Assembly: GCA_017457065.1 (NCBI GenBank)
Contig: JAFTIE010000113.1
Span: 7,120 to 71,119, forward strand
DNA length: 64,000 nt
Reading direction: 5' to 3'
From: Lentisphaeria bacterium
Lineage (GTDB): Bacteria; Verrucomicrobiota; Lentisphaeria; Victivallales; Victivallaceae
Shown here: one piece after another, positions 38,641 through 59,127 of the stretch
Numbering within the stretch: position 1 is the stretch's first letter
Layout: each line of letters begins with the position of its first letter
Made by a program: the position numbers and the translations under genes
Notes under the pieces: model-generated
Databases searched by the model: none
Seen by the model: only the letters and a program-made list of their open reading frames with translations
What the model was told of the DNA's origin: nothing

Positions 38641-38685
38641 ATCTCCGGATGAACTTGAAAGAACTTTTTTCAGAGGACGCAAAAA

Positions 38686-41836: not shown

Positions 41837-42361
41837 ATGAGTTTCCCGGTATTCTTCAGCATAGTCACAGTCTGGCTGGTTGTTTTAGGCTGGTATGACT
41901 GTTATTACCGCAGATTGCCCAATGTTTTGACATTGGGCGGTGCTGCGGTGTTTCTGGCTGTACACATTTTTAATGGCAGTATGACCAGCAGTTTGCTTGG
42001 AGGATTATTGGGATTTGCGTTTTTGCTTCTCCCCTTCCTGATGCGAGGCGCAGGAGCGGGAGATGTCAAAATGTTCGGAGCAGTGGGGATCCTCACCGGA
42101 TTCCCGCTGATCCTTTCTGCAATGTTCTGGTCAACTGTTTTCGGTTTGATCCTCGGCGTCATCATGGTGATCGCCGGAAAAACCGATGCGGCAAGATTGA
42201 AACATTTGTGGAGATGCTGTACTGACCGGAATTATGACCGGAAAGCCGGGAAAGAAGCTTTGCCGGAAAAACAGTCGGAAAAAGTGCGGATCCCATTCGG
42301 CGTGGCGATCGCCGCCGGATGCTGGACAGCGGAGGTGTTGTATGTTTTATCCGCCCGCTGA
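41837..42361 (+). CDS. cpaA: Prepilin peptidase CpaA/TadV (A24 aspartic peptidase)
   Basis: 174-aa polytopic membrane protein with YYRRLPNVLTLGG and the GxGD-type motif GAGAGDVKMFGAVG. Confidence 0.75.
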   Translation: MSFPVFFSIVTVWLVVLGWYDCYYRRLPNVLTLGGAAVFLAVHIFNGSMTSSLLGGLLGFAFLLLPFLMRGAGAGDVKMFGAVGILTGFPLILSAMFWSTVFGLILGVIMVIAGKTDAARLKHLWRCCTDRNYDRKAGKEALPEKQSEKVRIPFGVAIAAGCWTAEVLYVLSAR

Positions 42362-42977: not shown

Positions 42978-42978
42978 G

Positions 42979-43605: not shown

Positions 43606-44504
43606 ATGAGTACGAGGCCATTTCTGCCCAGTTGTTTGCCGGTCATAAAAACATAATAAACATGAGCAAAGCAGCAGAAGAGATCAAAAAAAGTATGGAT
43701 GGCCGGATCCGGCAGGTCGTTCAAACCATGCTTGAGGGAACGGAGAGCTGTGTTTTTTCCACCGATCTCTCAGAATTCCTTGAAAAGAATATCGATGAAA
43801 GCGACGTACTGAAACGCTATGATATTCAAACAGGGGGCAGTTTGCGATCCGATGCTTACTGGCAAAAAACATGGTGGCAGAAAGATTCAGATACGCTGGC
43901 GCATTCCTACTCCGGCGAAAAGGTTCCCGAATTGCAATGGATCGGCTATGCTGTTTCCTGGGTTTGCAACATTCACGGGCACACCCCCACATTACGTGCT
44001 TTTTCAGAGAAGCGTATAAGCACTCCCGGACAACATCCGGATAAGACTCGCTGGCAAACTGAAAATTGGAACGAATTACCTGAAGCTGAAATCTTCAGAC
44101 TGAAAGAAAATTTTTTCAGCAAAGATGGGGCTGTCGTTGTCGCCGCAAAAACGCCGATCCCGGATCTTTTCGGCAATGTTTTCGGCAAAAACAAATTCCT
44201 GAATTTCCGTGTTGACGGTAATTTATGGGCTGTTTCAGCCGCAAGAGCCGGATACCGTATCCCCGGAGAAACAAGGTATGAAAACAGCAAGTTTTCAAAT
44301 GAAGATAAATGGAACCTTTTTGTGGATGATTGGGAACCCATGTTCCTGCCCGTAAGCAGATGCTGGAAGTCCTGGGATGGTGAAAAATTTACCGGCGATG
44401 GTGCTTATAAAGTTTTAGAGGGAGTCGCAGAGAAACTCGGTATCAATATTTCTGAAAAAGGTCTGAACCTGAACGAAAAAGTTGATCTGGATATGCTCCA
44501 CTGA
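43452..44504 (+). CDS. Probable continuation of the TadG-like protein in the -1 frame
   Basis: 350-aa ORF (TTG at 43452; the frame is open further upstream). It overlaps the previous ORF by more than 150 nt and has no independent RBS or signal sequence. Confidence 0.5.
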   Translation: MALAPDIDTIKNALKNAFENALSLQLHGRLCSSGERGIKVLQEEVIDTVSLNEYEAISAQLFAGHKNIINMSKAAEEIKKSMDGRIRQVVQTMLEGTESCVFSTDLSEFLEKNIDESDVLKRYDIQTGGSLRSDAYWQKTWWQKDSDTLAHSYSGEKVPELQWIGYAVSWVCNIHGHTPTLRAFSEKRISTPGQHPDKTRWQTENWNELPEAEIFRLKENFFSKDGAVVVAAKTPIPDLFGNVFGKNKFLNFRVDGNLWAVSAARAGYRIPGETRYENSKFSNEDKWNLFVDDWEPMFLPVSRCWKSWDGEKFTGDGAYKVLEGVAEKLGINISEKGLNLNEKVDLDMLH

Positions 44505-44511
44505 TTGAGGA

Positions 44512-45177
44512 ATGACAATGCGGATGAGGAATTTATACAAAGATAACAAAGGTTCGGTAATGCTGGAAACGATTCTGGTGTTGCCGATGTACCTTGTGTT
44601 TATTACGGTGATTTTCCTCGCCGGTGAACTCTCTTTGTACCGCAATTTGCTTTTGCAAATGGATCAGCATGATCTGTGGGCTTTGGGGGCAAAGAGTCCG
44701 ACAAAAGTCGATACGGCAGAAAAATTGTTCGGGTCAGTGGGGAAAAGAGATTTTATGGGAGATTTTGAGATAACCGCGAAAGATCAGGATGAAAAAGTTC
44801 TCTCTACCAATGGTTGGTGGAAAAAAAATGCTCTTAAAAACAATGCTGTATTGAAAGTGCCCGGTTGGATAAAATCCATCCGGGTTCTCAGTGGACTTAT
44901 GGGACAGAACTCTCATAAAGCATTCAACTACAGCAACGGATTTGAATTACGGAAAAATGATGAAAAACTGGTGCTGTATTCACGCAACAGCGAAGAAAAT
45001 TGGCGGGGAGCCTGCGAAGGCGCAGACCTGTGTGCGGGCAGTGTTCCCCTGTGGGTGACAGTCGCCAATGAAAATACTGTCGGTTCGGCAGATGGACCGG
45101 AAAAGGTATTGGGAGAGGCGATCTTGCCCTATGCTAATGGGAAATCTGTGGAAAATTACAGGTCATATTGGGATTGA
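44512..45177 (+). CDS. tadE: TadE-like pseudopilin 2
   Basis: MTMRMRNLYKDNKG is followed by SVMLETILVLPMYLVFITVIFLAGE, the same processing-site pattern. Confidence 0.65.
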   Translation: MTMRMRNLYKDNKGSVMLETILVLPMYLVFITVIFLAGELSLYRNLLLQMDQHDLWALGAKSPTKVDTAEKLFGSVGKRDFMGDFEITAKDQDEKVLSTNGWWKKNALKNNAVLKVPGWIKSIRVLSGLMGQNSHKAFNYSNGFELRKNDEKLVLYSRNSEENWRGACEGADLCAGSVPLWVTVANENTVGSADGPEKVLGEAILPYANGKSVENYRSYWD

Positions 45178-45179
45178 AG

Positions 45180-45500
45180 ATGAAGAAAAAATTTTATATA
45201 TTTCTGTTTGTGATACTTGCCGCCTTCCCCCTGAGGGCAGAAGAGCGCAATGGATGGGGGATTTCAGGCGAATTGCCCTACAGTTACCCTTATGCCAGAA
45301 CTTGGGTCGGCGGAAAAATGCGGCAGGCAGGCTGGAAGTGTATCAAAGCATTTACCAGTGGGAAGAAAAATGAAATAGAACACAGCATCTGGGAAAAAGG
45401 TACTTCAAAGCTCCAGATGATGTTGTGGCGGATCGCCAGTGATAAAACCGGGTATTCGCAGCGCAGTTTGACCAAAAGTAAGACAGATAAAATATTATGA
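45180..45500 (+). CDS. Small secreted protein of unknown function
   Basis: The signal peptide is MKKKFYIFLFVILAAFPLRAEE. Its stop overlaps the kinase start (ATGA). Confidence 0.5.
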   Translation: MKKKFYIFLFVILAAFPLRAEERNGWGISGELPYSYPYARTWVGGKMRQAGWKCIKAFTSGKKNEIEHSIWEKGTSKLQMMLWRIASDKTGYSQRSLTKSKTDKIL

Positions 45501-48166
45501 CGACAGATTCACAGAGAAGTTCAGTATCAGCGGGTTCATCCGTATCGGCGGGTTCATCCGTATCGGCGGGTTCATCCGTATCGTCGACCGGTGCCCAGAG
45601 GCGCATGGTCCGGTACATACTGCCTGCCAACGCCATGATCGGTCCCTACAGGATCGAAAAGGCTCTCGGCCGCGGCGGTATGGGGGAGGTGTATCTTGCC
45701 CGGCACGTTAAACTGAATATCTTCAGAGCTATAAAAATATTGCTGCCTTCCATCGCAGAAAAAGATCATATCTACGCAGAGCGCTTTATGAATGAAGCAC
45801 GGCTCGCCATCGACATGCGGCACCAGAATATCATCAACGTCATGGATGCCAATTACGATGAGAGATACGGCGTGTATTATATCGTGATGGAATATGTGGA
45901 TGGCGCTTCGATCCGTAAGATCATCAAGGCAAGAGGGCGTTTTGACGAACAGACGGCTTTGAAGATCGTGCTCAAAGTGGCAGAAGCGCTTCTTGCGGCA
46001 GAGAAAATGAAGATCGTCCACCGGGATATCAAACCTGACAACATTATGATGACCTCGGACGGTGAGGTCAAACTTGCGGATCTCGGTATTGCAAAGTCCG
46101 GTTCGGAAAATGTGGAACTGACCAATCCCCAGACCATGCTGGGGACCATTGCATATATCTCTCCGGAACAGGCGACTGATGCACAGTCCGTTGACAGCCG
46201 TGCAGATATTTATTCTCTCGGCGTGACCTTGTATGAAATGCTGGCTGCCGAAAAACCCTACACGGGAACTCAGGTCGAAATATTGCAGCAGGTCTTCAAT
46301 GCCCCGGTCCCCAATATCCAGGCAAAGGTCCCTGCGGTCAGCGTCCTTACTGCCAAACTGCTCAAAAAGATGATGGCAAAAGATCCGGCGGACCGTCCGC
46401 GGAACTTTGAAACACTTTGCCGGCTGCTCAGCAAACTGATCGTTGATAAAGATCCGGAGAGTCAGGAGTATCTGCAGCAGGTACAGGAGATGTACGATCA
46501 GCAGAAGAAACTCCGGGAAGAGAAAAAACGGATCTTGGAAGAAAGACGCCGGTTGTCGGAAGAACAGAGCCTGATCGAGGCGGCAAAGAAAAAAATATCC
46601 ACCCACGACAGAAAGTTCTCTGAAGAAAGAGTGCGCCTTTCTGAAGAACAGAGTATGATCGAAGAGGAAAAAAAGAAGATTTCCGACCATCAGAAACTTT
46701 TTTCCGCAGAACGCCGCCGGATCGAAGAGGAACGCAAACAAATCGAAGATGAACGCAGACGCATGGTCGAACAGCAGAAAAAGATTTCTGAAAAAGAACA
46801 GAAGATCTCCGCCGAAGGTTTGCGTCTGGCAGAAGAACGCCGCCGGAAGAGAATGGAAAAAATCAAGATCGTGCTGAACAGGGTATATTGCCGGATGTCC
46901 GGAGATGCGGCGAAAAAAGTCTATAAAGTATCTGCCGTTTTCTGTCTGGTACTCAGCATGGTCTTTCTGGGCTTTTATTTCTACCAGACAGGCACCATCA
47001 CCAAATCGACCGTCGATGAAGTCATAGAATGGATAAGAGATACACTGACCCCTGAGGAAATGAGAAAAAAGCCCTCAGATCACTCCGTTTTTGTCCACGA
47101 AAAGGGCGTGGTGACACTGGTTCCCCTGGCAAATCAGAGAACCCTTGACTGGCTGGCGCAGAACAATGAGATAAAGATCAGAGGAAAAAAAATCGGAACT
47201 GTTGTTTCACGTTTACCCGGCAAGATCTCTCTGCCGGCGGGGGATTACAATGTCTCTGTCGATATCCCCGGATGTAAAACTTTCAATACTCGATTCTCTC
47301 TGGACAGTGAAGGGGAAACGAGGATCAGGATCCCGGTCATCCCTTCAAACGGAAAAGTCTCCATCAGCTGCAATGTCAGGAAGTTCGAGATCCTGCACCG
47401 GGGCAGGTGGATCGCCGCAAAGAGCGTTGAGATCCCTGCATTTGTTCCCTATGACCTCATCGTCCGTGCCGAAGGTCACAGAGGGTCCGTTTGTAAAAAC
47501 ATTGTGCTGTCTCCCGGAAAGAGTGAGGATATCTCTGTCATACTGGAGCGGATGAATACCGATTTGAACTCCTGCAGATCCGGCAATATGGCAGAGGCGA
47601 TCACAGCTTTCAATGAGAAATCCAACAAAGGTTACACCAGAGCCTTGAAAATTTTCAAACAGGAGCGGGAAAAAGGCAATCCCGTTGCCGCCTATTACCT
47701 CGGCATGATGTATGAACGGGGACTGGGAATGATGTTCGGATGGTCCAATCCCAAAGAGGCGGCAAAGTGCTACAAGTTTGCCGTGCAGCATGATGTTCCT
47801 GAGGCTTTGCACAGGATGGGGACCAATTATGAAAGAGACGGCGCCTTTGAAGAGGCATTCAAATCCTTTATGAGCGGGGTGGAACTGGGACATCTCCCCT
47901 GTTTCAGAAAGGTTGGTGAATACTATTTCAACGGTACCGGCAGTACCGGTAAAAATCTGACCCTTGCTTCTCATTATCTGCTGCTGCCGGCAAATAATGC
48001 AGATGCTGAAGCTCAACTTATGCTGGGAAAAATTTACGAATCCGATGAGTTGACCCTGCACGATCTGCAGCAGGCAAAACATTGGTATGAAGAGGCGGCG
48101 AAAAACGGCAGCGAAAATGCAAAGATTTTTTTGGAACAGGTACAAAGAACTATGGAGATCTTATAA
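45497..48166 (+). CDS. Hanks-type Ser/Thr protein kinase with coiled-coil, one TM, beta-sandwich region and C-terminal Sel1 repeats
   Basis: Kinase motifs are GRGGMGEVY, RAIK, HRDIKPDNIMM, DLGIAK and ISPEQ. A charged repeat/coiled-coil spans ~46500-46860. The TM is VSAVFCLVLSMVFLGFYFY. Sel1-like units include AAYYLGMMYERGLG, ALHRMGTNYERDG and AQLMLGKIYE. Confidence 0.85.
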   Translation: MTTDSQRSSVSAGSSVSAGSSVSAGSSVSSTGAQRRMVRYILPANAMIGPYRIEKALGRGGMGEVYLARHVKLNIFRAIKILLPSIAEKDHIYAERFMNEARLAIDMRHQNIINVMDANYDERYGVYYIVMEYVDGASIRKIIKARGRFDEQTALKIVLKVAEALLAAEKMKIVHRDIKPDNIMMTSDGEVKLADLGIAKSGSENVELTNPQTMLGTIAYISPEQATDAQSVDSRADIYSLGVTLYEMLAAEKPYTGTQVEILQQVFNAPVPNIQAKVPAVSVLTAKLLKKMMAKDPADRPRNFETLCRLLSKLIVDKDPESQEYLQQVQEMYDQQKKLREEKKRILEERRRLSEEQSLIEAAKKKISTHDRKFSEERVRLSEEQSMIEEEKKKISDHQKLFSAERRRIEEERKQIEDERRRMVEQQKKISEKEQKISAEGLRLAEERRRKRMEKIKIVLNRVYCRMSGDAAKKVYKVSAVFCLVLSMVFLGFYFYQTGTITKSTVDEVIEWIRDTLTPEEMRKKPSDHSVFVHEKGVVTLVPLANQRTLDWLAQNNEIKIRGKKIGTVVSRLPGKISLPAGDYNVSVDIPGCKTFNTRFSLDSEGETRIRIPVIPSNGKVSISCNVRKFEILHRGRWIAAKSVEIPAFVPYDLIVRAEGHRGSVCKNIVLSPGKSEDISVILERMNTDLNSCRSGNMAEAITAFNEKSNKGYTRALKIFKQEREKGNPVAAYYLGMMYERGLGMMFGWSNPKEAAKCYKFAVQHDVPEALHRMGTNYERDGAFEEAFKSFMSGVELGHLPCFRKVGEYYFNGTGSTGKNLTLASHYLLLPANNADAEAQLMLGKIYESDELTLHDLQQAKHWYEEAAKNGSENAKIFLEQVQRTMEIL
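45521..45586 (+). repeat. 18-bp in-frame tandem repeat (about 3.6 copies) at the 5' end of the kinase gene
   Basis: The unit is tccgtatcggcgggttca. The copies run 45521-38 (degenerate), 45539-56, 45557-74 and a partial copy at 45575-86. They encode (S)SVSAG x3. Confidence 0.9.
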
Positions 48167-48334: not shown

Positions 48335-49108
48335 ATGAATAAAAATATGATTCCTTTGATCCTTGCTGTAATACTCGGACTGGCTGCAGTATACGCTGTC
48401 AACCGTCTGGTCTTGCAGAAAAAAGCTCTGGCGGAAGAAGAAATGGTCGAAGTCGTCGCTGCGGCAAGAAATCTTGCTCCGGGGGATATATTGACAGAAG
48501 GCTCTTTTACCAAAAAGAAAATTCCCCAGACAGCCCGTCCCACCAAGGCGATCTTGTGGTCCCAGACAGCCGTCATCAAGGACCGCAAACTGAACATGCC
48601 TGTTGCCGAAGGTGACTACATTCTTCTTGATGAGGTCAACAGCGGCCGCGGTTTGAGCGATATCATCGGCGAAGGGGAATGGGCGATCTCTGTCAGTTTC
48701 TCTGCGGGAGCTGTGACCAAATCACTCCGTCCCGGCGATGAGATCGCAATTCTGGGGACCTTCAATGCTGAAGCTGTAAAGAAGGCCGCCGTCGCCGGAC
48801 AGAAACCGACAGTGGTGCATCGCAAAGTCACCACAGTGATCCTGCCCAAAGTCCGTATCCTCAGTCTGGCAGATAATAAGCGGCAGGGAGGCGATGAAGT
48901 GGTACTGGCATTGCCGCCGACTCAGGCGAACACACTTCTTGCCGCTCAGGCGCAAGGTGTTGAATTGTACCCTGCACTGCGTAAATCTCATGATGATTCC
49001 AATCTTAACCGCTTGGATACAGGGGTCGTCAGCAGCAAAACCTTCAGCAAACTTGTTGAAGGTGTCAATGATGTTGAGATCCCCCATGTTCCGAGCAAAA
49101 CAAAATAA
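48335..49108 (+). CDS. cpaB: Flp pilus assembly protein CpaB/RcpC (paralog 2)
   Basis: The N-terminal TM is IPLILAVILGLAAVYAV and the SAF-like motif is VEVVAAARNLAPGDILTEGSF. It lies directly upstream of the secretin, as in canonical cpaB-cpaC. Confidence 0.8.
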   Translation: MNKNMIPLILAVILGLAAVYAVNRLVLQKKALAEEEMVEVVAAARNLAPGDILTEGSFTKKKIPQTARPTKAILWSQTAVIKDRKLNMPVAEGDYILLDEVNSGRGLSDIIGEGEWAISVSFSAGAVTKSLRPGDEIAILGTFNAEAVKKAAVAGQKPTVVHRKVTTVILPKVRILSLADNKRQGGDEVVLALPPTQANTLLAAQAQGVELYPALRKSHDDSNLNRLDTGVVSSKTFSKLVEGVNDVEIPHVPSKTK

Positions 49109-49128: not shown

Positions 49129-50697
49129 ATGAAAAAAATCTTTTCGTTGCTGGCTGTTCTTGGTACAGTTCTGTCCCTTTCAGCCGCAGAAGCAAAACTG
49201 CTCAGGATCCCTGTAGGATCTTTGAGCGTGGTCGATGTTCCTTTCAAAGTTGAAAATGTCAGTATCAGCAACAAGGAGATCGTCCGGGTCGAAACTCTCA
49301 GTGACCGTCAGGTCCGTATCAACGGATTGAAAATCGGTGTGACCGACGTGCAGCTCCTGGGCAGCAATATGTCACAGGTTTACAGTGTCACTGTGATCAA
49401 TGACATCCGCGAGACCTTCAACGCTTTGAAACGTGACTTGAGCGACGTTTCTGAAATCGACCTCACCATCAACAATGGACGTATCGTTCTGCGCGGCGAG
49501 ATCAACAATATTTCCAACTGGATCCTGAAACGCAAGGTCACTGCTGTCTACGGTTCAGTGATCCTCGACCTGACCACTTATCATCCGACTCCTGAGGTCA
49601 TGCTCAGTTTGCAGAAAAACTTTGAAAAAGCCGGATTCAAGATCGTCCGTAAAGATGCGGCGACCAAACCCGGTGAACTGGCGATCACCCAGATCGGTGA
49701 AATGCTGACCGTTACAGGTTCGGTTTACAATCCTGCGGATCTGAAAACCATTGACAGCATTCTGCGTGCTCAGCCCTGGTTGACTTTGAACACCTCTGCC
49801 ACTTCTACGGATGCGGCATTGGTCAAAGGTTTTGTCAATGTTCAGGTCGTCCCTGAAATGCTCCAGATCGATGTTGTCCATGTGACAGTTGATCGGACTG
49901 ATATGGAAAAAATCGGTATCAACTGGACTGAATTTGTCAACGGCGGATTCGGGCTCAACACGGATTTGCTTTACAAAGTCATCAAAAATTATGGTTCTCC
50001 CACCATTAAAAACAACTCTAAGGCATCTTTCGGAATTGGCAGCAATGGTGAACTCAGTGCCTGGCTGTCATTCTTTGGTAGCAATGGCATCAACCGTACC
50101 CGCCGGGCTGGTTTCTTGACCTTCAAAAGCAATGATACGCCTGAATTCAGAAAATTGCACAGCGGCGGTACTCTTTATCTTTCCCCCGGAGCTAATCCCG
50201 GTGGCAGTGTTGAATTGAAAGATATTGACTACGGTTTGATTCTTCAGGTCAAAGGAGGTTTGAGCGGAGCTGATAATGTTGCTATCGAATTGAAACAGGA
50301 AATCAGTTATCCGGGCCCCAAAGGTTTATATGCACAGGCTGCAGAAATTGATGTCAAGAAATTCACTAATACCACCTCTGTGGTTTGCAAACTTGGTGAA
50401 ACTGTTGCCATTGGTGGCTTGAAAGAGTTTATACAGGAAGGAACTGATTCCGCTGGAATTCCATATTTGCGCAACATTCCTGGCTTGAAATGGCTTTTTG
50501 CAGAAGATTCAGATACATTTACCGAAAGCCAAGTACTGACTTTGATTTGTGTGCGTAAAATGGCAAAATCTTCTGCCATCGATCCCGTTGCTGTTGAACT
50601 GGATAAAATGAAAAAAGCAGAAGACAGACAGATCAAAGAGCGCGAAGCCAATAAGCATAAGAACGATGGCAAATGGTACGAATTCTGGAGATGGTGA
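49129..50697 (+). CDS. cpaC: CpaC/RcpA secretin
   Basis: It has a signal peptide and a pilus-formation N-terminal domain (LRIPVGSLSVVDVPFKVENVSISNKEIVRVE). A BON-like segment follows. The C-terminal secretin motifs are VAIGGL and GIPYLRNIPGLKWLF. Confidence 0.85.
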   Translation: MKKIFSLLAVLGTVLSLSAAEAKLLRIPVGSLSVVDVPFKVENVSISNKEIVRVETLSDRQVRINGLKIGVTDVQLLGSNMSQVYSVTVINDIRETFNALKRDLSDVSEIDLTINNGRIVLRGEINNISNWILKRKVTAVYGSVILDLTTYHPTPEVMLSLQKNFEKAGFKIVRKDAATKPGELAITQIGEMLTVTGSVYNPADLKTIDSILRAQPWLTLNTSATSTDAALVKGFVNVQVVPEMLQIDVVHVTVDRTDMEKIGINWTEFVNGGFGLNTDLLYKVIKNYGSPTIKNNSKASFGIGSNGELSAWLSFFGSNGINRTRRAGFLTFKSNDTPEFRKLHSGGTLYLSPGANPGGSVELKDIDYGLILQVKGGLSGADNVAIELKQEISYPGPKGLYAQAAEIDVKKFTNTTSVVCKLGETVAIGGLKEFIQEGTDSAGIPYLRNIPGLKWLFAEDSDTFTESQVLTLICVRKMAKSSAIDPVAVELDKMKKAEDRQIKEREANKHKNDGKWYEFWRW

Positions 50698-50726
50698 TTT
50701 AACCATTTGCGATCAAGGAGTGTCTT

Positions 50727-52436
50727 ATGTATCTCATCATCAAAGGTAGAAGCGAAAGTTTCAGAAGTGTTTCTCTGGACGGAGAAAAGTCAAATTGGCT
50801 GATCGGCAGAGATCCCGGTTGCGACATCGTGTTGAAAGCCAGTCAGATCTCACGGCGTCATGCTGTGATCTCTCTGGAAGACGGCGAGTTTTTCATCCGG
50901 GACTGTAACAGTTCTCTCGGCGTTTTTGTCAATGAAACCCAAATAAGTGAAAAGACAAAAATTGCTGTCGGCAGTCTTATCCGTCTTTGTTCCTATGAGC
51001 TTTTGCTCTCCTTTGAAGATGTGGAAGATGATGAAGAAGCCCCGGATGAATCTGAACAGACGATAATGATATCAGATGTTCAGAAGTTCCGGGGAGCCTT
51101 CTTCAATCAGGGGAAATTCCAAAGTGAATACAAATCAGTCAACCTGCTCTATACTGACGAGATGATGCGGCTGAAAAAACGTATCCATGAAAAGATTTTA
51201 AGCGAAATGAACCTGCCTGCGATCCATGTCCGGGATCTGGCGAAATCTGAGACCCGGACCCGGTTGGATCGGGTCCTTACCCGGGTCATGCGCGAGTTCT
51301 GGCACGAGATCCCCCGGAACATCTCTCCGGAAATATTCAAGGAAGGGATCGTCGATGAGTTGATAAACTACGGTCCCATCTCCCCCTTGCTGCGGGCTGA
51401 TGACATTACCGAAGTAATGATCAATGGTCCGGATCTGATTTTTGTTGAACACCAGGGGAAACTGTTTGAAACAGGGATCCGTTTCTTCAATGAGCAACAC
51501 CTTTTGTCGGTTATTCAGAGGATCGTTGAACCTCTGGGCAGACACATTGATGAAGCAAGTCCCATGGTGGACGCCCGTCTGCCGGATGGTTCCCGTGTGA
51601 ATGCCATCATTCCGCCATTGGCCATTGACGGAGCTCTGGTCACGATCCGTAAATTTGCCAAAAACAAATTGACAACAGAGGATCTGATCGATTACGGCTC
51701 TTTGACAGAAGAAATGGCGCAATTTCTGTCGCTGGCGGTGAAATATAAGCAGAATATCATCATTTCCGGAGGTACCGGTTCCGGAAAAACCACTTTGCTG
51801 AACGTGCTGAGCCAGTTCATCCCTCTGGATGAACGTCTGGTCACCATTGAAGACTCAGCCGAATTGAAATTGACTCACCGCAACCTTGCACGCCTTGAGG
51901 CGAGAACTGCCAATATTGAAGGAAAAGGCAGGATCTCCATCAGAGATCTTCTGGTCAATGCCCTGCGCATGAGACCTGACCGGATCATCATCGGTGAGTG
52001 CCGTTCCGGGGAGGCTCTGGATATGCTGCAGGCAATGAATACCGGACACGACGGCGCACTGACAACAGTCCACGCAAACAGTCCCCGCGACTCATTGAGC
52101 CGTCTGGAAAATATGGTCCTCATGGCAGGAGTCGATCTGCCTGTATCCTCTATCCGGGAGCAGGTCGCCTCAGCCATCAACTTTGTGGTCCAGCAGAGCC
52201 GCATTGGTGACGGTTCAAGAAAAATCACCCAAATCACCGAAATCACAGGTCGTGAAGGCAACACGATACTGATGCAGGATATTTTTGTCTGGAAACAGGA
52301 AGGAATAGATGAGAACGGGAAGTTTTACGGACACTTTGAAGCTACCGGACATATTCCCAAATTTGTTTCTCTTCTGCGGGAGCGGGGAGTCCTGGATCTG
52401 GATATGAGCCTCTTTGCCAAGGGAACAGAAATATGA
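50727..52436 (+). CDS. cpaF: CpaF/TadA secretion ATPase with an N-terminal FHA domain (fusion)
   Basis: The FHA is WLIGRDPGCDIVLKASQISRRHAVISLEDGEFFIRDCNSSLGVFVNE. An acidic linker (EDVEDDEEAPDESE) follows. Then comes the T2SSE core: GGTGSGKTTLLN (Walker A), RPDRIIIGECR (Walker B) and NTGHDGALTTVHANS. Confidence 0.9.
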   Translation: MYLIIKGRSESFRSVSLDGEKSNWLIGRDPGCDIVLKASQISRRHAVISLEDGEFFIRDCNSSLGVFVNETQISEKTKIAVGSLIRLCSYELLLSFEDVEDDEEAPDESEQTIMISDVQKFRGAFFNQGKFQSEYKSVNLLYTDEMMRLKKRIHEKILSEMNLPAIHVRDLAKSETRTRLDRVLTRVMREFWHEIPRNISPEIFKEGIVDELINYGPISPLLRADDITEVMINGPDLIFVEHQGKLFETGIRFFNEQHLLSVIQRIVEPLGRHIDEASPMVDARLPDGSRVNAIIPPLAIDGALVTIRKFAKNKLTTEDLIDYGSLTEEMAQFLSLAVKYKQNIIISGGTGSGKTTLLNVLSQFIPLDERLVTIEDSAELKLTHRNLARLEARTANIEGKGRISIRDLLVNALRMRPDRIIIGECRSGEALDMLQAMNTGHDGALTTVHANSPRDSLSRLENMVLMAGVDLPVSSIREQVASAINFVVQQSRIGDGSRKITQITEITGREGNTILMQDIFVWKQEGIDENGKFYGHFEATGHIPKFVSLLRERGVLDLDMSLFAKGTEI

Positions 52437-53296
52437 CAAGCCAATATTTAGCTTTAGGAACCGTTTTCTTTGCCGTATTTATCGGCACACTGGTTTTGAC
52501 ACCGTTGTTCTCTGCTCACTCATCATATCTGGCAACTCTGAACAACTCTTCTTCCTATGATGACAAGCAGATCCTGGTGAAAAAACGTAATGTTCAAGTG
52601 GGACTTTCACTGGGCATCTGTATCTGTGCACTGGTGGTCGCCGCCGGGTGGTGCATGAAGTTTGCCTGGTATATATATTTGCCCATCGCATTGCTGCTCG
52701 GCGCTGTGATGTGCTGGCTCCCCTTTGTGATAAGCCGGAAGGTCGCCCTCAGAAGATTGCGGGCGTTTGACGACGGGATGCTCGATTTTACCGTTATGAT
52801 CCTGAACAGCTTGAAAGCAGGTCTTTCCCTTACAGGAGCCATTGAAGCCGCACTTGAAAATGCCTCAGGAGCTGTTTATGATGAATTTGCACTCATGCTG
52901 AAAGAACATCATCTCGGTCTGGAATTGCCCCGTGCACTCAGTAATATGTCTCAGCGCAATGACAGTGAAAATTTACAACTGTTTGTTCTTACCGTTTCAG
53001 TATGTATGAAAACCGGCGGCAGTATGGTGGAGGTCCTGGACCATGTCGTTTCCACCATCCGGCAGAGAGGAGAATTTCAGGATAAGGTCAAAACCATGGT
53101 CGCCCAGTCAAAATTTGAGGCTCTGGCAATATCCATGTCTCCCTTTGCCGCACTGATCATTCTCTGTATTTTCAAACCTTCTTTTGTCAAACCTCTGCTC
53201 GTTCACCCCATCGGATGGTGTGCCATGGCATTTGTCTGCATCTGGGAAATCATCGGTTTTATCATAATCAAACGGGTCGTGACCGTCAAATTCTAA
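52433..53296 (+). CDS. tadB: TadB-like inner-membrane platform protein (T2SS F domain)
   Basis: 287 aa. It has N-terminal TMs, a cytoplasmic helical domain (MILNSLKAGLSLTGAIEAA...LPRAL) and C-terminal TMs. It has a 4-nt overlap with cpaF. Confidence 0.75.
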   Translation: MTSQYLALGTVFFAVFIGTLVLTPLFSAHSSYLATLNNSSSYDDKQILVKKRNVQVGLSLGICICALVVAAGWCMKFAWYIYLPIALLLGAVMCWLPFVISRKVALRRLRAFDDGMLDFTVMILNSLKAGLSLTGAIEAALENASGAVYDEFALMLKEHHLGLELPRALSNMSQRNDSENLQLFVLTVSVCMKTGGSMVEVLDHVVSTIRQRGEFQDKVKTMVAQSKFEALAISMSPFAALIILCIFKPSFVKPLLVHPIGWCAMAFVCIWEIIGFIIIKRVVTVKF

Positions 53297-53308: not shown

Positions 53309-54205
53309 ATGACAACAGCATATTTGATGACATACGCTCTGATATTCGGAGCTGTATTCAGTCTGATTATTTTTGTCAGCACATTGAGAAAAAACAGAAA
53401 CCTGTCACAGTACAGGAATTTGCCGGTCTACTTCTATATGTTTCAGGGCGCCATTGCCTTTTTTTCCCTGGAAATCGGATCGTTGCTGGTAAAAGGCAAA
53501 AACAAGTCGAAAATGGAAAGTTTACTCAGGCAGTCTGCCCTTGCGCTTCAGGTCCAGGATGTTTACGGCGCTGCGATCGTTATGGCTTTGGTCGGCGGTA
53601 TTGTCGGCGGCGTATTTGTATCCCTGCTGAAGATGCCTTTGCCGCTGAAACTTCTTCTGGTGATCATATTCGCTGTTATCGGCGGGTTCATGCCCTTCGT
53701 CAGTCTCCGGCAGATCTGCCAGAGACGCACCGAAGAAATTTTAAGGGATCTGCCCTTTTTCATAGATATCATTTCCTCCTCCATGAACGCCGGTTTGGAC
53801 TTCAATGCTTCAGTTGCCCATCTTGCTGATATAAAAAGCAAGGAAAACTCCGTATTGAAAGATGAGTTCATGTACTACCTCAAAGAGGTCCAGTTGGGGA
53901 AATCCAGGGCAGAGGCTTTGCGTGCTATGGAAAGAAGGATCTCTGTGAAAGAGTTCAGCCGGTTCATTTATGCCATTCTCCACGGCATAGAAACCGGCGT
54001 TTCGATCGTCGAAGTAATGAAGGTACAATCTGTGGAGCTCCGCCGGTCCCGTGCTTCTTCCGCCGAACAGAAGGCGGCAGAGGCTCCTGCCAAGATGATC
54101 CTTCCCATGGTCGTTTTCATTTTTCCTTCCATGTTCATCATTATTTTTACCCCTATCCTGATAAGGATGAAAGATTCTCCTCTCTTTTCATTTCTTAAAT
54201 GGTAA
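53309..54205 (+). CDS. tadC: TadC-like inner-membrane platform protein (T2SS F domain)
   Basis: 298 aa with DLPFFIDIISSSMNAGLDFNASVAHL, RAEALRAMERR and C-terminal TMs. Confidence 0.75.
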   Translation: MTTAYLMTYALIFGAVFSLIIFVSTLRKNRNLSQYRNLPVYFYMFQGAIAFFSLEIGSLLVKGKNKSKMESLLRQSALALQVQDVYGAAIVMALVGGIVGGVFVSLLKMPLPLKLLLVIIFAVIGGFMPFVSLRQICQRRTEEILRDLPFFIDIISSSMNAGLDFNASVAHLADIKSKENSVLKDEFMYYLKEVQLGKSRAEALRAMERRISVKEFSRFIYAILHGIETGVSIVEVMKVQSVELRRSRASSAEQKAAEAPAKMILPMVVFIFPSMFIIIFTPILIRMKDSPLFSFLKW

Positions 54206-54229: not shown

Positions 54230-56800
54230 ATGAATTATCAGCTTAAAAATATTTCGGAGAAAGATCACGGTACGGTTTATGAACTGCAAACAGGCAAAAA
54301 TCTGCTTGGCAGATCACGCTCAGCAACCATCAGGATCCTGTTGGATGATATCTCCGGAAAACAGTGTATTCTTCACTCAAACGGTCTGCAGGTCAAACTT
54401 GAAAATCTCAGCCGTTTCGGAACAAGAGTGAATAACAGCAAAGTTATCGAATCGGTCGATCTGGTTGAAGGAGATATCATCACCCTCGGTGCGAAATGTC
54501 AGTTGCTCCTGGAAAAATGCCCCGAAGAGCCTCAGGCGGTCGAGAGAGAGATGCTCCTTGTGGGAGAAAAAGATCCTTTGCACGATACTGTCGTTGATCT
54601 TTTGCCGGGGGAACGACCGGATATCCCTGTTGCGGCGTTTTTCCCGGGGCATACCGGTGCAGACGAAGGCATCAAAAAAGAGCCTTTGCAGGAGAATACA
54701 AAGACCTTGACCGGTACTGTCGGCGAAGAGGCGACAGCCGCGACCCGTTTCGTAGAGGAACTGCTTCAGAAAGAAACACCTCCTGATGCTGTCGGCGAAG
54801 AGGCGACAGCTGCGACCCGTTTCGTAGAGGAGCTGCTTCAGAAAGAGACTCTCCCTGATGCTGCCGGGGAAGAGGCGACAGCTGCGACCCGTTTCGTAGA
54901 GGATCTGCTTCAGAAAGAGACATCCCCTGATACTGCCGGGGAAGAGGCGACAGCTGCGACCCGTTTCGTAGAGGATCTGCTTCAGAAAGAGACTCTCCCT
55001 GATGCTGCCGGGGAAGAGGCGACAGCTGCGACCCGCTTCGCAGGAGATCTGCCTGTGGAAGAGGTGGTCTGCCCTGACAAAGCAGAAGAGTTGACGGCGG
55101 AAACCAAATTTGCCGGGGATCTTTCCCCTGCAGATCAACAAGCTTCCGGAAATGAAACTGCTCTGCCCCGGAAGGCAGAAGATGAGACACCGGAAGCGGA
55201 AAAAAATGCAGATATGGATGGAAGCTGGACACAGTTTTCATCAGATGCCGGTCACAAGCCGGCAAAGGGCTTTCTTCACCGGGTCATTTCCAGACTGTTT
55301 TTCAAAAAAACTTTTGTCGAAGACACCCGGTATATCTCTGACGATAAGGAACCGTTTCCCGGTGAGACAGCCGCAGAAACTTTCTCAAAATCAGCTGATG
55401 ATGTAAAGGAACGATTCCCCTCCTCTGCGGGGGATCTCTCCGGCTCTGACAGAGATCCGGGAGAAAAAAGCGTAAAAGAGTCTCCGGCGGTCGTCCCCGC
55501 TGCGTCTGAAGATGTGACTGTGAAAAACGATGGGGCACATATCATGCCGGAAGATCCTGAAAGCATGGAGGCGCTTGAAGAAGAGATCCGGCAGCAGAGA
55601 AGCGCAGAGGAGTTTTTTGAAGATGAAGATCCCGGGGATAAAACCGATCCCGATCCTGAGGATATAACCACCTTTTTTGAAGATGAGGAAAGTGAGAGTT
55701 CCGAAAAGACCAATGTCAACGAAACTCAAATGCTCCAGACCCGCATCGCCAGTATCGATGAGATCAATTACATCAAGGATCAGGTGAAACGGAGACAACA
55801 GAAGCGGTTCCTGATGCGCGCTGCGATATTTGCATCGATCGCTTTTGCTTTGTATTTTATCTGGCACCTCAGAGCACCTCAACAGGAAGATGTTCTGTCA
55901 TGGCCCAAGAATGGGGATAAGCAGGCCACAGGTTTCGCCGTCCCCTTTGAAAAGGGATGGGATAATGGCGGTTTTGATGTGTTTTATCCCGATTGCGGCA
56001 AGAGAACTGTCAAGTATAAGCCGCAGGCAGATACCTTTACAGTAGACTCCTTCATAGGAATAAAGCGGAATGTTCCTGTGAAGATCACTATCAGCCGTCA
56101 GAGATCCTCTCTGTTCCTTGAAGAATCCAGAAAGCAGTCTTTCACACGGCTGCTGACGGAAAAGATGAAAAACAAAAAAGAGTTATATACATTTGATAAA
56201 AATTCTTCTGTCACCTTTCTGGGATCCCACAACGGTATCAGGTGCAATGTCATAACCTACCAGAAAGATCATAACAACCGCTCTTTCTGGGGAAAAATGT
56301 ACTACTTCAGGTATGGTGACATGGCATATCACCTGACTGCCGAAGTTCCGTTTGACGACAGGATCAGGGCAAAAAAACTCCTTGAAGATAACAGTTTTAT
56401 AGACATAAGCCAGAAGTTTGAATATCTCTACTGGGAAGGCAGCGACGATTTCCGCCGGGGAGATCTTCAGGCAAGGATCGATGAGATCGAAGACGATGTC
56501 AGGCGGAAGTCTCCCTTCCAAATTTCCAACCTGGAACGGGGGATCCGGAGCATTCTGATCCAAACTACCCTTGAGAATAATACAAAATTGCGGGAAAAGG
56601 GACTGGAATTACTTGAAAAACTTCGCCGGAACGAGGATGAACTGTATCGCGAATATGTGGGGAAATGGCTGTTGGCAGAAGCTACAGGCGATACACAGCT
56701 GAAACAAAAGATCAGAAATGTGAGCGAAGGAGTGTTTTCTCTGGAAACCGATCGCCGCAGAGAGCTGATCTTGCAAGATAAGTGGAGTATTGAGAAATGA
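54230..56800 (+). CDS. FHA-domain single-pass membrane protein with a 24-aa tandem-repeat array
   Basis: The N-terminal FHA-like segment is NLLGRSRSATIRILLDDISGKQCILHS...LSRFGTRVNN (GR and S kept, His replaced by Gln). Five repeats GEEATAATRFVE[ED]LLQKET.PD follow, then an acidic region. The TM is AAIFASIAFALYFIWHL. The C-terminal domain is paralogous to that of the 39600 protein. Confidence 0.75.
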   Translation: MNYQLKNISEKDHGTVYELQTGKNLLGRSRSATIRILLDDISGKQCILHSNGLQVKLENLSRFGTRVNNSKVIESVDLVEGDIITLGAKCQLLLEKCPEEPQAVEREMLLVGEKDPLHDTVVDLLPGERPDIPVAAFFPGHTGADEGIKKEPLQENTKTLTGTVGEEATAATRFVEELLQKETPPDAVGEEATAATRFVEELLQKETLPDAAGEEATAATRFVEDLLQKETSPDTAGEEATAATRFVEDLLQKETLPDAAGEEATAATRFAGDLPVEEVVCPDKAEELTAETKFAGDLSPADQQASGNETALPRKAEDETPEAEKNADMDGSWTQFSSDAGHKPAKGFLHRVISRLFFKKTFVEDTRYISDDKEPFPGETAAETFSKSADDVKERFPSSAGDLSGSDRDPGEKSVKESPAVVPAASEDVTVKNDGAHIMPEDPESMEALEEEIRQQRSAEEFFEDEDPGDKTDPDPEDITTFFEDEESESSEKTNVNETQMLQTRIASIDEINYIKDQVKRRQQKRFLMRAAIFASIAFALYFIWHLRAPQQEDVLSWPKNGDKQATGFAVPFEKGWDNGGFDVFYPDCGKRTVKYKPQADTFTVDSFIGIKRNVPVKITISRQRSSLFLEESRKQSFTRLLTEKMKNKKELYTFDKNSSVTFLGSHNGIRCNVITYQKDHNNRSFWGKMYYFRYGDMAYHLTAEVPFDDRIRAKKLLEDNSFIDISQKFEYLYWEGSDDFRRGDLQARIDEIEDDVRRKSPFQISNLERGIRSILIQTTLENNTKLREKGLELLEKLRRNEDELYREYVGKWLLAEATGDTQLKQKIRNVSEGVFSLETDRRRELILQDKWSIEK
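54719..55130 (+). repeat. 72-bp in-frame tandem repeat array (4 full copies, 1 partial, 1 degenerate)
   Basis: Copies start at 54719, 54791, 54863, 54935 and 55007, an exact 72-nt period. A degenerate copy lies near 55082. Confidence 0.95.
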
Positions 56801-59127
56801 GTATTCTTAACAGCCTGAGCAGCGCCGTTGAAAACAGAAGAAAAGAACTGCACATCGGGATCGAACATAACGGGATCCTGCTGTATGAAGTATATACAGA
56901 AGAATTTACAAAAGAGATCTCCATCGGCAGAAGTTCCCAATGTGATTGGAGTTTGAGCCAGGTCGATGAATCTGTCAGCAGCAAACACGCTTTGATCTCA
57001 TTGCGCAAAGACAGCTTCTACCTTACAGATCTCGGGAGCCGCAACGGCATGTATTTTCAGGCAAAGCGCATCGCGGAAAAGAAACTTGTTCCCGGGGACA
57101 GGATCAGTTTGGGGGAGTGTGTCGTTTTTGTTGATGATGAATCAAAAAAGTTGAAAAAACTCTCTCAGATGAATCAGATCGAATATGTGAACGGCAGTGG
57201 ACGCAAGGTCCTGTATGATATTTCCAAGCCTGAAACGATCATCGGTTCGGCATCCGATGCAGACATCCGGATAGAGGATCAGCTGATCTCCTCCCGCCAC
57301 GCCGTCATATCTTTGCGGAACGACGGGAGCTGCTGGCTTAAAGATAACGGCAGCCGCAACGGAACAAGTGTCAACGGCAAAGAATTGCCCGTAGGGTCTG
57401 AACGGATGCTTCAGGAAGGGGATATCATTACCATAGCCTATCTTGAAATGAAATTTCTTGATGCCGCTGTTCTGCATGAAAGTTCCAAACTGTTGACTTC
57501 GATCGTGATCGCCGGCATAACGATCCTTGTCGTTCTGGGCGGATATATCGGTTACATGCAGCTGACACCTTCGGCAGATGCGATCATCGCTGCGGCAAGG
57601 CGGGAGGCGGCTCAACTGGATTTCTCTGCCGCAGAAAAACTGTTGAACGATTCAAAACTGGCACGCAATGCAGACGATGCTGCTTCTGAACGGGAAACTT
57701 TGTTCAGGCAGATCGCAATATGGAAAAAAACCATACACATCTGGGAAATGGTGAAGAAAGATCTTGTCAGAAAACAATTCAATACGGCAAACAGCAATCT
57801 GTCAAGCATCAATCACTCCGATTTGAACACCTGGAACTGGAACAATGATGCCGCATTTGTTGAAAAAAGCAAAGCTCAGGCAGTAAAACAGATCCTTGAC
57901 TGCTGCTCCGGTGCAGATTCTCTTCTGAAACAGGAAAATGAGTTGATTGCCCGCATTGAAAAACAGAAAATGGAGCTCTCTTTTGCCATGCGCAGCGGAG
58001 AACAGTATAAGAATGAAAAATATATGCAGTCACTGCTTCAGGAAGGTTCCCGGCAGCTGCAGCGTCTTGACCGTGTCATGCAGGAACACAGATATCTCAA
58101 CAATATCATCAGTTTGCTCAGTCATGAAAAGCCCGATTATCAGCGGGTGATGACAGATTTGACGAAACTTGCAGAAACCGGGCAGGAGGCTGTTCAAATA
58201 AAAGCCAAGCGTATACTGATCCCTGTACGGAATCTTGCCAGAGAAACCAACCGGATGCTTGAAGCGGTCAGCAAGGTCTGTGAACTTGATTTTGCTGCTG
58301 TTGAGTCATTTTCTTTGAACTTACCCGATTCCGTTGATTATTCGTCAGAAAAAAATATCGCTTCATTGAAACAGGCTCTGATCAACCGTGTCAAGCGGCT
58401 CAAAGATTCCTCTATTCAAATTTCGATCCTGTACCGCAATTTGAAGGCGCAGGGCGTTGCAACCGGGAAAAAGGTTGCCGCAGTGGAGCATTTTCTTTCA
58501 GACGAAACGATGAAACAGGTTTATTCCTTTGATATATTCAATTACACCATTCCGCGCATTTCCCGGAGAGAACCTTCCGGTGTGTATGATCAGATGGTGG
58601 GCTATGAGTTCATGTACGACTATTTGAAAAATATCCATGCGGATATGATGACATTGAATATTGAAGATCTGCCATTCAAACCTCAGCTCTATCTTGTCCG
58701 GACGATTTTTACAGATATCAACCGTTTTCTGACCTATGTTGACCGGGATGAAAATTTGTGGTTCCAGAATGGAAAGCTGAATACCTTTATTGAGCACTGC
58801 AGGACCATCCCTGCTTTGAGAGAAAAAATCATTTCCCGTTGCAGGAAGCAATTTTCTGTGAAAGATAAAAGAACACAGCTTCTGGCAAAAGGGATCGTTT
58901 TGTACCTCAGCAGCATCAACGGTTCTTCCAAAGAGGAGAATGAAAAATTTGCAAATGAGTTCCAGACTCTTACCAGAGCGATCCAGAAAAAGGACCGTGA
59001 GTTCTCACGCTCCATGCCCGAAGAGCAAATCAAACTGCGGGATGAAATAATTGCAGCAGGATTCCCCGGTGATCCTATCGTAAGAAAAATGTGGCGTATG
59101 CGCCCCACTGAAAAGCGGAGAAAGTAA
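56797..59127 (+). CDS. Double-FHA single-pass membrane protein
   Basis: FHA-a is ISIGRSSQCDWSLSQVDESVSSKHALISLRKDSFYLTDLGSRNGMYF. FHA-b is TIIGSASDADIRIEDQLISSRHAVISLRNDGSCWLKDNGSRNGTSVNG. The TM is LLTSIVIAGITILVVLGGYIGYM. A ~520-aa largely helical C-terminal region follows. It has a 4-nt overlap upstream. Confidence 0.8.
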   Translation: MSILNSLSSAVENRRKELHIGIEHNGILLYEVYTEEFTKEISIGRSSQCDWSLSQVDESVSSKHALISLRKDSFYLTDLGSRNGMYFQAKRIAEKKLVPGDRISLGECVVFVDDESKKLKKLSQMNQIEYVNGSGRKVLYDISKPETIIGSASDADIRIEDQLISSRHAVISLRNDGSCWLKDNGSRNGTSVNGKELPVGSERMLQEGDIITIAYLEMKFLDAAVLHESSKLLTSIVIAGITILVVLGGYIGYMQLTPSADAIIAAARREAAQLDFSAAEKLLNDSKLARNADDAASERETLFRQIAIWKKTIHIWEMVKKDLVRKQFNTANSNLSSINHSDLNTWNWNNDAAFVEKSKAQAVKQILDCCSGADSLLKQENELIARIEKQKMELSFAMRSGEQYKNEKYMQSLLQEGSRQLQRLDRVMQEHRYLNNIISLLSHEKPDYQRVMTDLTKLAETGQEAVQIKAKRILIPVRNLARETNRMLEAVSKVCELDFAAVESFSLNLPDSVDYSSEKNIASLKQALINRVKRLKDSSIQISILYRNLKAQGVATGKKVAAVEHFLSDETMKQVYSFDIFNYTIPRISRREPSGVYDQMVGYEFMYDYLKNIHADMMTLNIEDLPFKPQLYLVRTIFTDINRFLTYVDRDENLWFQNGKLNTFIEHCRTIPALREKIISRCRKQFSVKDKRTQLLAKGIVLYLSSINGSSKEENEKFANEFQTLTRAIQKKDREFSRSMPEEQIKLRDEIIAAGFPGDPIVRKMWRMRPTEKRRK

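Follow-up and report, generated by a model that had tools for sequence, protein, structure and literature searches.

The 64,000-nucleotide stretch of Lentisphaeria contig JAFTIE010000113.1 analyzed here in full (the window) carries a cluster of genes for a Tad pilus, and in its midst the gene for the pilus motor, a CpaF/TadA-type ATPase that bears a forkhead-associated (FHA) domain at its N-terminus (Table 1). The gene is almost certainly a class III FHA-CpaF, the single motor of a Tad/Flp-type pilus in a Victivallales-like Lentisphaeria bacterium.

The motor gene and its product

The core of the motor is established as a CpaF-type rotary motor. The T2SSE domain (PF00437) was matched by residues 215-491 with E=2e-63, the top NCBIfam models were of the TadA, VirB11, TrbB and FlaI types, and residues 202-552 aligned with the Caulobacter crescentus CpaF structures 8rkd, 8rjf and 9e24 at E~1e-115 (2.4e-115 for 8rkd and 9e24); weaker matches of the core were obtained with archaeal GspE/FlaI (1e-47 to 1e-39), VirB11 (1e-36) and PilT/PilB (1e-9). 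A Foldseek search with an AlphaFold2 (AF2) model of the motor, built on an alignment of 15 relatives, placed CpaF entries first and returned the same ranking as the sequence search. In this model a folded FHA domain is followed by a disordered linker, a helical bundle (helices at residues 129-141, 144-161 and 168-190) and a two-domain ATPase. The Walker A, Asp box, Walker B and His box are all invariant in the alignment, and the complete CpaF/TadA core, with Walker A, Walker B and His box, that a preliminary description of this locus had read from the sequence is borne out by the Pfam and CpaF matches.

The same description had assigned the N-terminal ~95 residues to an FHA domain with all hallmark residues, joined to the core by an acidic linker. 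The domain itself was confirmed in a hidden Markov model search, in which PF00498 matched residues 24-87 with E=6.5e-19 (68.6 bits against a cutoff of 20.7). The solved FHA domains of ArnA, GarA and EmbR matched at E=4e-7 to 1e-5, GarA and OdhI being among the nearest solved FHA domains, and residues 1-99 were modeled as an all-beta fold of eight strands with a predicted local distance difference test score (pLDDT) of 80-93. The claim regarding the hallmark residues holds only in part: G27-R28 and S42-R43-x-H45 are present, all five named residues being invariant in the 15 relatives and aligning with ArnA and GarA, but the canonical Asn is replaced by Leu64. Judging from the alignment, the phosphate-contacting residues are intact and the canonical peptide-backbone anchor is missing; that the motor FHA reads phosphothreonine, as the same description proposed, is plausible. 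The linker is acidic as described (DVEDDEEAPDESE at residues 98-110) and disordered in the model; its length and sequence differ between relatives.

The start at 50727 holds because the FHA codons are under purifying selection, a strong Shine-Dalgarno sequence precedes the ATG, and full-length homologues are conserved. In comparison to a 94%-identical relative, codons 1-97 have accumulated 28 synonymous and 10 non-synonymous changes (ratio of non-synonymous to synonymous rates, dN/dS, 0.065). The upstream secretin gene ends at 50697, before the motor ATG, and none of the internal ATG, GTG or TTG codons of the motor open reading frame (ORF) has a ribosome-binding site comparable to that before 50727. 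The alternative that the FHA domain is an annotation artefact, an untranslated or decaying stretch upstream of a true start at about residues 114-147, can point to in-frame ATG codons at residues 114, 146 and 147, but is effectively refuted by these data and by the conservation of the full-length, FHA-bearing form in at least five phyla.

Within Lentisphaeria/Victivallales, full-length FHA-bearing homologues of the motor were found from 94% down to 56% identity. The nearest of these, at 94%, come from metagenome-assembled genomes of the same group; since synonymous divergence from the nearest relatives (dS) is 0.7-1.5, the window represents a distinct species.

Organization of the Tad cluster

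From position 38686 to its end, the window is occupied by one co-directional Tad cluster, in which the motor is co-encoded with the TadB/TadC platform, an RcpA/CpaC secretin, RcpC/CpaB, a prepilin peptidase and Flp pilin candidates; a faint Flp_Fap match was obtained at the syntenic pilin position in relative L083. Four proteins of the cluster, the motor included, together contain five FHA domains. The kinases reported earlier in the vicinity of the motor gene comprise two full-length Hanks-type kinases (STK1 and STK3), which are accompanied by a PP2C-family phosphatase. The RcpC/CpaB-secretin pair sits where cpaE/tadZ would normally be. Relatives with 94%, 68% and 58% motor identity have kept the gene order all the way from the pilins to the 2xFHA protein and PP2C; in all three the PP2C gene occupies the same position, and at least one kinase is present in each.

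Table 1. Features of the FHA-CpaF motor gene and of the surrounding Tad cluster (window coordinates; TM, transmembrane)
Feature	Position	Strand	Residues	Basis or remark
RcpC/CpaB paralogue, first gene of the low-GC Tad cluster	38686-39459	+		Pfam RcpC and SAF
FHA-TM protein A (cytoplasmic FHA, one TM helix, extracytoplasmic domain)	39510-41087	+
Two Flp-type pilin candidates	41159-41380, 41490-41828	+		G/SVM[LI]EY motif
Prepilin peptidase (A24), TadE-like, TadG-like, two conserved genes of unknown function	41837-45500	+		Synteny
STK1, Hanks-type kinase	45497-48166	+		Pkinase E=6.9e-50
RcpC/CpaB	48335-49108	+		With the secretin, directly 5' of the motor gene
Secretin CpaC/RcpA	49129-50697	+		With RcpC/CpaB, directly 5' of the motor gene
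Shine-Dalgarno AAGGAG	50716-50721	+		6-nt spacer to ATG at 50727; read from sequence
FHA-CpaF/TadA gene, Tad pilus motor ATPase, class III architecture	50727-52436	+	569 in total
FHA domain	50727-51017	+	1-97	Pfam PF00498, PDB FHA matches, AF2, dN/dS
FHA residue R28	50808-50810	+	28
FHA residue S42	50850-50852	+	42
FHA residue H45	50859-50861	+	45
FHA residue Leu64	50916-50918	+	64
Acidic disordered linker	51018-51137	+	98-137	AF2 pLDDT 22-49 (residues 100-137)
Linker Thr112 in E-Q-T-I-M-I, Ile at +3	51060-51062	+	112	Motif positions
Helical bundle, counterpart of the CpaF three-helix bundle	51138-51326	+	~138-200	AF2; domain scheme of PMC12019362
CpaF N-terminal domain and C-terminal ATPase domain	51327-52433	+		Pfam, CpaF structure alignment, Foldseek, motifs
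Walker A GGTGSGKTT	51768-51794	+	348-356	Motif positions
Asp box	51843-51866	+	373-380	Motif positions
Walker B DRIIIGE	51978-51998	+	418-424	Motif positions
His box	52041-52079	+	439-451	Motif positions
Platform protein TadB	52433-53296	+		T2SSF match
Platform protein TadC	53309-54205	+		T2SSF match
FHA-TM protein B	54230-56800	+		FHA, repeat array, one TM helix, extracytoplasmic domain
2xFHA protein	56797-59127	+		Two FHA domains, one TM helix, long helical C-terminal part
PP2C-family Ser/Thr phosphatase	59130-59999	+
Short kinase-like ORF	59968-60735	+		No C-lobe
STK3, receptor-type Hanks kinase	60683-63958	+		Kinase, one TM helix, CarboxypepD_reg-like and Sel1 domains

Distribution and origin of the FHA fusion

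The fusion of an FHA domain to CpaF is neither new nor rare, and the motor described here joins the known class III, KilF-like CpaFs. The novelty implied by the preliminary description is therefore overstated, the class being already published (PMC12019362, PMC8460266). A study of CpaF (Nat Commun 2025) distinguished three architectural classes, of which class III, composed of FHA, a disordered region and CpaF, is mostly betaproteobacterial (PMC12019362); and KilF of the Kil killing machine of Myxococcus xanthus is a hexameric ATPase with an N-terminal FHA domain, encoded in FHA-rich clusters (eLife 2021, PMC8460266). Word searches of the supplementary files of the class survey returned no Lentisphaerae and no Verrucomicrobia (PMC12019362). 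In a scan of one genome per species, FHA-bearing CpaFs were found in Lentisphaeria, Verrucomicrobia, Kiritimatiellia, Myxococcota, Beta- and Gammaproteobacteria and Acidithiobacillus. N-terminal architectures were also counted in the best 150 representatives at 50% identity, drawn from 1.8 billion proteins: 50 carried an FHA domain, 50 a fused ParA/TadZ domain, and none carried both. In about ten of the representatives, two or three CpaF cores follow one another in tandem, in proteins of up to 1605 residues.

The window clade was recovered in 99/100 bootstraps of a neighbor-joining tree of the cores, and its union with the other FHA- or ParA-fused CpaFs, the beta- and gammaproteobacterial class III members and the Myxococcota FHA-CpaFs among them, in 2/100. 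The FHA domain of the motor scored 44-52 bits against the CpaF-FHAs of Verrucomicrobia, Kiritimatiellia and Myxococcota and 30-37 bits against the FHA domains of its own operon, and a recent local capture is unlikely on that account. On the number of origins of the fusion, the core tree and the FHA similarity point in opposite directions.

FHA domain and TadZ/CpaE in Tad loci

The preliminary description had noted that no TadZ/CpaE is encoded alongside the motor. A scan for the deviant Walker A motif and a search with 12 ParA/CpaE queries (E<=1) indeed revealed no TadZ/CpaE-like ParA/MinD ORF in the 64-kb window, and the suggestion that the FHA domain stands in for TadZ in motor localization gained comparative support. 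A ParA/CpaE-like gene was found within 10 kb in 33 of the 40 loci encoding a plain CpaF and in none of the 34 encoding an FHA-fused one. When the comparison was confined to loci with upstream sequence of 3 kb or more, the counts were 27/32 and 0/28, respectively (Fisher p=2.4e-12, a value that ignores shared ancestry and refers to flanks of up to 10 kb). In the plain loci the ParA-like gene typically lies less than 200 nt upstream of cpaF, and the controls display the arrangement typical of TadZ, receiver (REC) plus ParA. The ParA/CpaE queries also matched proteins in three gammaproteobacterial FHA loci; as TadZ-type queries hit these through the receiver domain, they were rejected as TadZ and identified as NtrC/NarL-type response regulators and a hybrid histidine kinase (Pfam, NCBIfam).

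A third N-terminal state, in which CpaF is fused to a ParA/TadZ-like domain to give proteins of ~700-760 residues, was observed in 6 of 80 loci; in the core tree these proteins lie among the FHA-fused CpaFs. Examples are L021, L026, L045, L031, L069 and L040 among the loci and a subset of P0154-P0270 among the representatives.

The CpaE of Caulobacter surrounds CpaF as a ring of six dimers and has been described as ubiquitous. The paper that defined the CpaF classes makes no mention of CpaE (PMC12019362), and no statement on the mutual exclusivity of FHA and TadZ was found in the literature searched. The genomic context of the motor represents a Lentisphaeria version of those Tad systems that are rich in FHA proteins and lack TadZ, one in which the kinases and the phosphatase belong to the operon. 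On the strength of the locus comparison, we lean towards the tethered FHA domain being a motor-docking module that would take the place of TadZ.

Phosphate pocket, kinases and phosphatase across loci

The degree to which the FHA pocket is preserved varied between groups. The sampled CpaF-FHAs of Myxococcota, Kiritimatiellia and Verrucomicrobia displayed the full canonical pocket; those of the window clade have kept Arg, Ser and His and are without the Asn; and in those of Beta- and Gammaproteobacteria and Acidithiobacillus the sequence is mostly G-K and (A/G)-x-x-H, with loss of the phosphate ligands. A PP2C gene was present in 3/16 loci with an Arg- and Ser-retaining FHA, in 0/20 with a degenerate FHA and in 0/46 without FHA, while an in-cluster kinase accompanied 5/16 intact-pocket and 2/20 degenerate FHA loci, a weak trend; both sets of counts are small, their loci are not independent, and they serve as supporting evidence only.

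Accessory FHA proteins and kinases of the cluster

The repeat array described earlier in the gene of FHA-TM protein B proved to be real. Tandem Repeats Finder placed it at 54717-55122, with 4.7 copies of a 72-nt unit matching at 92%; it encodes GEEATAATRFVE[ED]LLQKET.PDA and is Thr-rich and acidic, with EEATAATRFVE repeated five times. The motif E-x-T-x-x-T-[RK]-[FY] is present in 5-6 copies in the window, and four copies of T-[RK]-[FY] are found in the 68% orthologue despite its diverged surroundings. Orthologues in the 94% relatives are 984-1008 residues long as opposed to 856 in the window, indicating that the number of repeat copies varies. Protein B could serve as a phospho-acceptor and as a ligand of FHA domains.

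Proteins A and B are paralogous in their extracytoplasmic domain (E=5e-15, 39510-41087 against 55697-56797). That of protein B was modeled (AF2, pLDDT 83) as a PsbP/DcrB/Eag (SciW-EagT6)-like alpha/beta domain followed by a helical domain, and this model suggests a sensor or adaptor rather than a ring builder. A role of the FHA-TM proteins as PrgH/YscD-like ring builders had been considered and was dropped, as the modeled domain resembles the PsbP/DcrB/Eag fold. The C-terminal domain of protein B belongs to a narrow family, with three homologues in a word search of a 5.8-billion-protein database, and among the loci compared the C-terminal domains of the FHA-TM and 2xFHA proteins were seen only in Lentisphaeria. 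In the 2xFHA protein the first FHA domain is fully canonical (GR, SSKH, SRNG) and in the second Gly-Ser replaces Gly-Arg; the cluster thus mixes different states of the FHA pocket.

STK1 consists of a kinase domain, a coiled-coil region, a TM helix at residues 478-496 and extracytoplasmic Sel1 repeats. Its HRD, DLG and SPE motifs are intact, STK1 being the only kinase for which the catalytic motifs were read directly. The short kinase-like ORF has the Gly-loop, Lys, HGD and DLG, and is devoid of a C-lobe or APE motif. It is kept 3' of the PP2C gene, at 232-249 residues, in the 94% and 68% relatives and is absent at 58%. By analogy it may be a pseudokinase or an adaptor, recalling the pseudokinase EssB, which binds the FHA domains of EssC.

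A proposed model for motor docking and its alternatives

Taken as a whole, the explanation that we favor on balance is that of a class III Tad motor which docks through its FHA domain and which, in this sub-clade, is phospho-gated. The hexameric core works, as is established for the family, like the CpaF of Caulobacter, turning the TadB/TadC platform and adding or removing Flp pilins. In this scheme the FHA domain, on its flexible tether, would most likely dock and recruit the motor in place of TadZ/CpaE, the ParA-like ring by which CpaF is otherwise positioned and surrounded. The two receptor-type Hanks kinases, with their extracytoplasmic Sel1 domains, would phosphorylate a membrane-anchored partner and PP2C would oppose them; protein B, with its recurring E-x-T-x-x-T-[RK]-[FY] motif, is the best candidate for such a partner, and the motor FHA could bind this motif, once phosphorylated, via R28, S42 and R43. 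That docking in this sub-clade is gated by the kinases and phosphatase of the operon, through reversible threonine phosphorylation, is suggested by the invariant R28, S42 and R43, the receptor kinases, the syntenic PP2C, the association of PP2C with the pocket and the repeated Thr motif, and the ATPases of type VII secretion systems (T7SS) may be counted as a published parallel (PMC11217815); we nevertheless hold this part of the scheme more tentatively than docking itself, at somewhat under an even chance.

Several observations weigh against this explanation. Leu64, in the loop NSSLGVFVNE, occupies the site of the canonical Asn of S-x-N-G-T in ArnA, GarA and Rad53, and across the window clade the site is taken by L, A, I, T or G, never by Asn. 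Neither a kinase nor a PP2C was found within 10 kb of the motor in the distant clade members L001, L003 and L004, and the T-R-F motif is lacking in the 58% orthologue of protein B. The separation of FHA from TadZ, for its part, was counted over limited flanks and among loci that share ancestry. Finally, the proteobacterial and Acidithiobacillus FHA-CpaF loci are without TadZ even though their pockets are degenerate, so that docking need not depend on phosphothreonine.

The missing Asn and the TadZ-less loci with degenerate pockets also speak for an alternative in which the FHA domain is a phosphorylation-independent adaptor for an unphosphorylated partner (a kinase-like protein, an FHA protein or the platform), and the kinases and phosphatase of the operon act on other FHA proteins and not on the motor. 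The domain scores above threshold on the Yop-YscD_cpl model as well (47.9 against 33.2 bits), and the FHA-like domains of YscD/PrgH in type III secretion systems provide a precedent; another is EssC, whose FHA domains, where they are without a pocket, bind the pseudokinase EssB in T7SSb (PMC11217815). The conservation beside the PP2C gene of a kinase-like ORF without a C-lobe fits the same alternative. Yet R28, S42 and R43 are strictly the same in all 15 relatives, the most distant at 56% identity, although their neighbors vary; if no phosphate ligand were bound, this would be difficult to account for. PP2C, moreover, co-localizes only with FHAs that retain Arg and Ser. We therefore consider an adaptor of this kind possible but rather unlikely.

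A further scenario, self-regulation, strikes us as improbable. Here a kinase of the cluster would phosphorylate Thr112 of the linker, and the FHA domain would bind it in cis (autoinhibition similar to that of GarA/OdhI) or in trans (as in Rad53/Chk2), thereby tuning the assembly of the hexamer or the balance between extension and retraction. Thr112 does lie in a disordered linker and is followed by a hydrophobic +3 residue, a Thr occupies the aligned site in most relatives of at least 63% identity, and GarA and OdhI stand near the motor FHA, as mentioned above; furthermore, the disordered N-terminus of Caulobacter CpaF affects pilus dynamics (PMC12019362). However, outside the closest relatives the linker shows little conservation, the Thr112 site is occupied by Lys in one close relative, and the exclusivity of FHA and TadZ would be left unexplained.

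Docking through the FHA domain, possibly under phospho-control, bears on the switching of the single bifunctional Tad motor and its recruitment to the platform, in which TadZ/CpaE is usually credited with a ubiquitous role. The comparison shows a large group of Tad systems, spread over several phyla, in which no TadZ lies nearby and the motor bears an FHA domain in its stead. What the comparison adds is a testable hypothesis of motor recruitment, made up of the exclusivity of FHA and TadZ and a self-contained phospho-module. It likewise gives a starting point for explaining the signaling step of the Myxococcus Kil killing machine, and in this gut-associated Lentisphaeria lineage the kinases, the phosphatase and the candidate phospho-acceptors are encoded in the same operon, a compact set for reconstitution. 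In its widest form, which we put forward as a conjecture with the odds against it, the proposal would be that FHA and TadZ/CpaE are interchangeable targeting modules of Tad motors across bacteria, FHA perhaps being ancestral or repeatedly recruited, and that docking would be switched here by envelope-sensing Hanks kinases acting on a repeat-bearing FHA-TM adaptor, to which the motor FHA would bind, and reset by PP2C. If this is true, a phospho-switch would for the first time be seen to act directly on the motor of a type IV filament, and the placement and triggering of TadZ-less Tad and Kil machines would be accounted for.

Comparison with known systems

In its domain order (FHA, intrinsically disordered region, three-helix bundle, N-terminal domain, C-terminal ATPase domain) the window motor is the same as class III CpaFs such as E3HIW0 of Achromobacter xylosoxidans, and it shares with them the character of a single bifunctional Tad motor with a PilT/VirB11-like N-terminal domain and an ATPase domain (PMC12019362). 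It keeps Arg28, Ser42 and Arg43, whereas the sampled beta- and gammaproteobacterial members have mostly lost the ligands. In our comparisons E3HIW0 and KilF were represented by betaproteobacterial and Myxococcota loci, respectively, from the genome scan.

The Kil system and the window have in common an FHA-fused Tad motor, several further FHA proteins and the lack of a TadZ second ATPase; in both, an FHA gene adjoins the prepilin peptidase gene and FHA genes adjoin those of the platform (PMC8460266). A signaling cascade has been proposed for Kil, KilF clusters at the sites of prey contact, and the threonine phosphorylation pathway of the type VI secretion system (T6SS) is cited in the same paper (PMC8460266). 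The two systems differ in that the Kil genes are divided between two clusters and those of the window form one operon-like cluster. The Kil domain table includes no Hanks kinase or PP2C domain, with one FHA/TPR protein, MXAN_4648, bearing 'Protein kinase G 1.6E-18' in its function column (PMC8460266), whereas the window encodes two Hanks kinases, a kinase-like ORF and PP2C. The sampled Myxococcota CpaF-FHAs, probable relatives of KilF, have the full canonical pocket including the Asn that the window motor lacks, and no counterparts of the accessory FHA-TM proteins were detectable in the Myxococcota loci compared. Kil is assembled on contact with prey and kills it; Lentisphaeria are not known to have such a predatory function.

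A tethered module on the motor is also found in TadZA of Bdellovibrio bacteriovorus, which consists of an N-terminal targeting domain, a flexible linker and a TadA motor and which has no separate TadZ gene (bioRxiv 10.64898/2026.07.08.737194). The domain tethered in this case is TadZ, which is ParA/MinD-like and binds to the polarity hub RomR; in the window motor it is an FHA domain. EssC of T7SS likewise carries N-terminal FHA domains on a secretion or assembly ATPase, with pocket conservation graded between subtypes; those in which the pocket is intact are accompanied by a membrane kinase and a PP2C/PPM phosphatase (PMC11217815). The EssC ATPase is unrelated (FtsK-like and membrane-bound) and belongs to a different machine, and the likeness is one of design and not of homology.

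Caulobacter crescentus CpaF is highly similar to the window motor in its core and in all catalytic motifs, and the neighborhoods are alike, with a secretin upstream and TadB/TadC homologues downstream. It is, however, a class II protein with only a disordered N-terminus and depends on a separate CpaE ring, whereas in the window an FHA domain caps the linker and no CpaE is encoded. In the T6SS of Pseudomonas aeruginosa, the receptor-type Hanks kinase PpkA, the PP2C phosphatase PppA and the scaffold Fha1 lie inside the gene cluster of this envelope-spanning machine and are thought to trigger its assembly. The FHA protein is there a separate scaffold and the ATPase ClpV is without FHA, in contrast to the window, where the FHA domain is part of the motor itself.

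Additional features of the cluster and its relatives

The G+C content of the window drops from ~0.54 to ~0.47 at ~38.5 kb, exactly at the start of the Tad cluster, and from ~38500 the GC skew turns steadily positive. The genes 5' of the cluster are housekeeping ones, coding for PhoH, FabF, FabG, FabD, RibF, CoaD and oligopeptidase F (PepF). The GC boundary was examined and no tRNA was found in the window, nor did Pfam reveal an integrase among the ten large flanking ORFs (26989-39459), which comprise housekeeping genes and the first RcpC gene of the cluster. Horizontal acquisition of the Tad cluster is possible.

The TadG-like gene (42955-44504) is split over two frames, tblastn placing residues 1-115 in one and 174-505 in another, and corresponds to a single ORF of ~500 residues in relatives; the frameshift may mark either a pseudogene or a sequencing error. 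In the 94% relatives L084 and L085 (1-487, 20004-21707) a second, FHA-less T2SSE ATPase of 355 residues is encoded directly 5' of the pilin genes, where the window carries the RcpC paralogue and FHA-TM protein A. An FHA-Pkinase fusion gene lies downstream in L084 and in L081/L082 (68%) and has no equivalent in the window. Within STK1, the N-terminus (45497-45610) contains a Ser-rich triple repeat (SAGSSV x3), and residues ~330-450, between the kinase domain and the TM helix, form a long, charged, coiled-coil-like stretch with 'EE.RR..EEQ' repeats.

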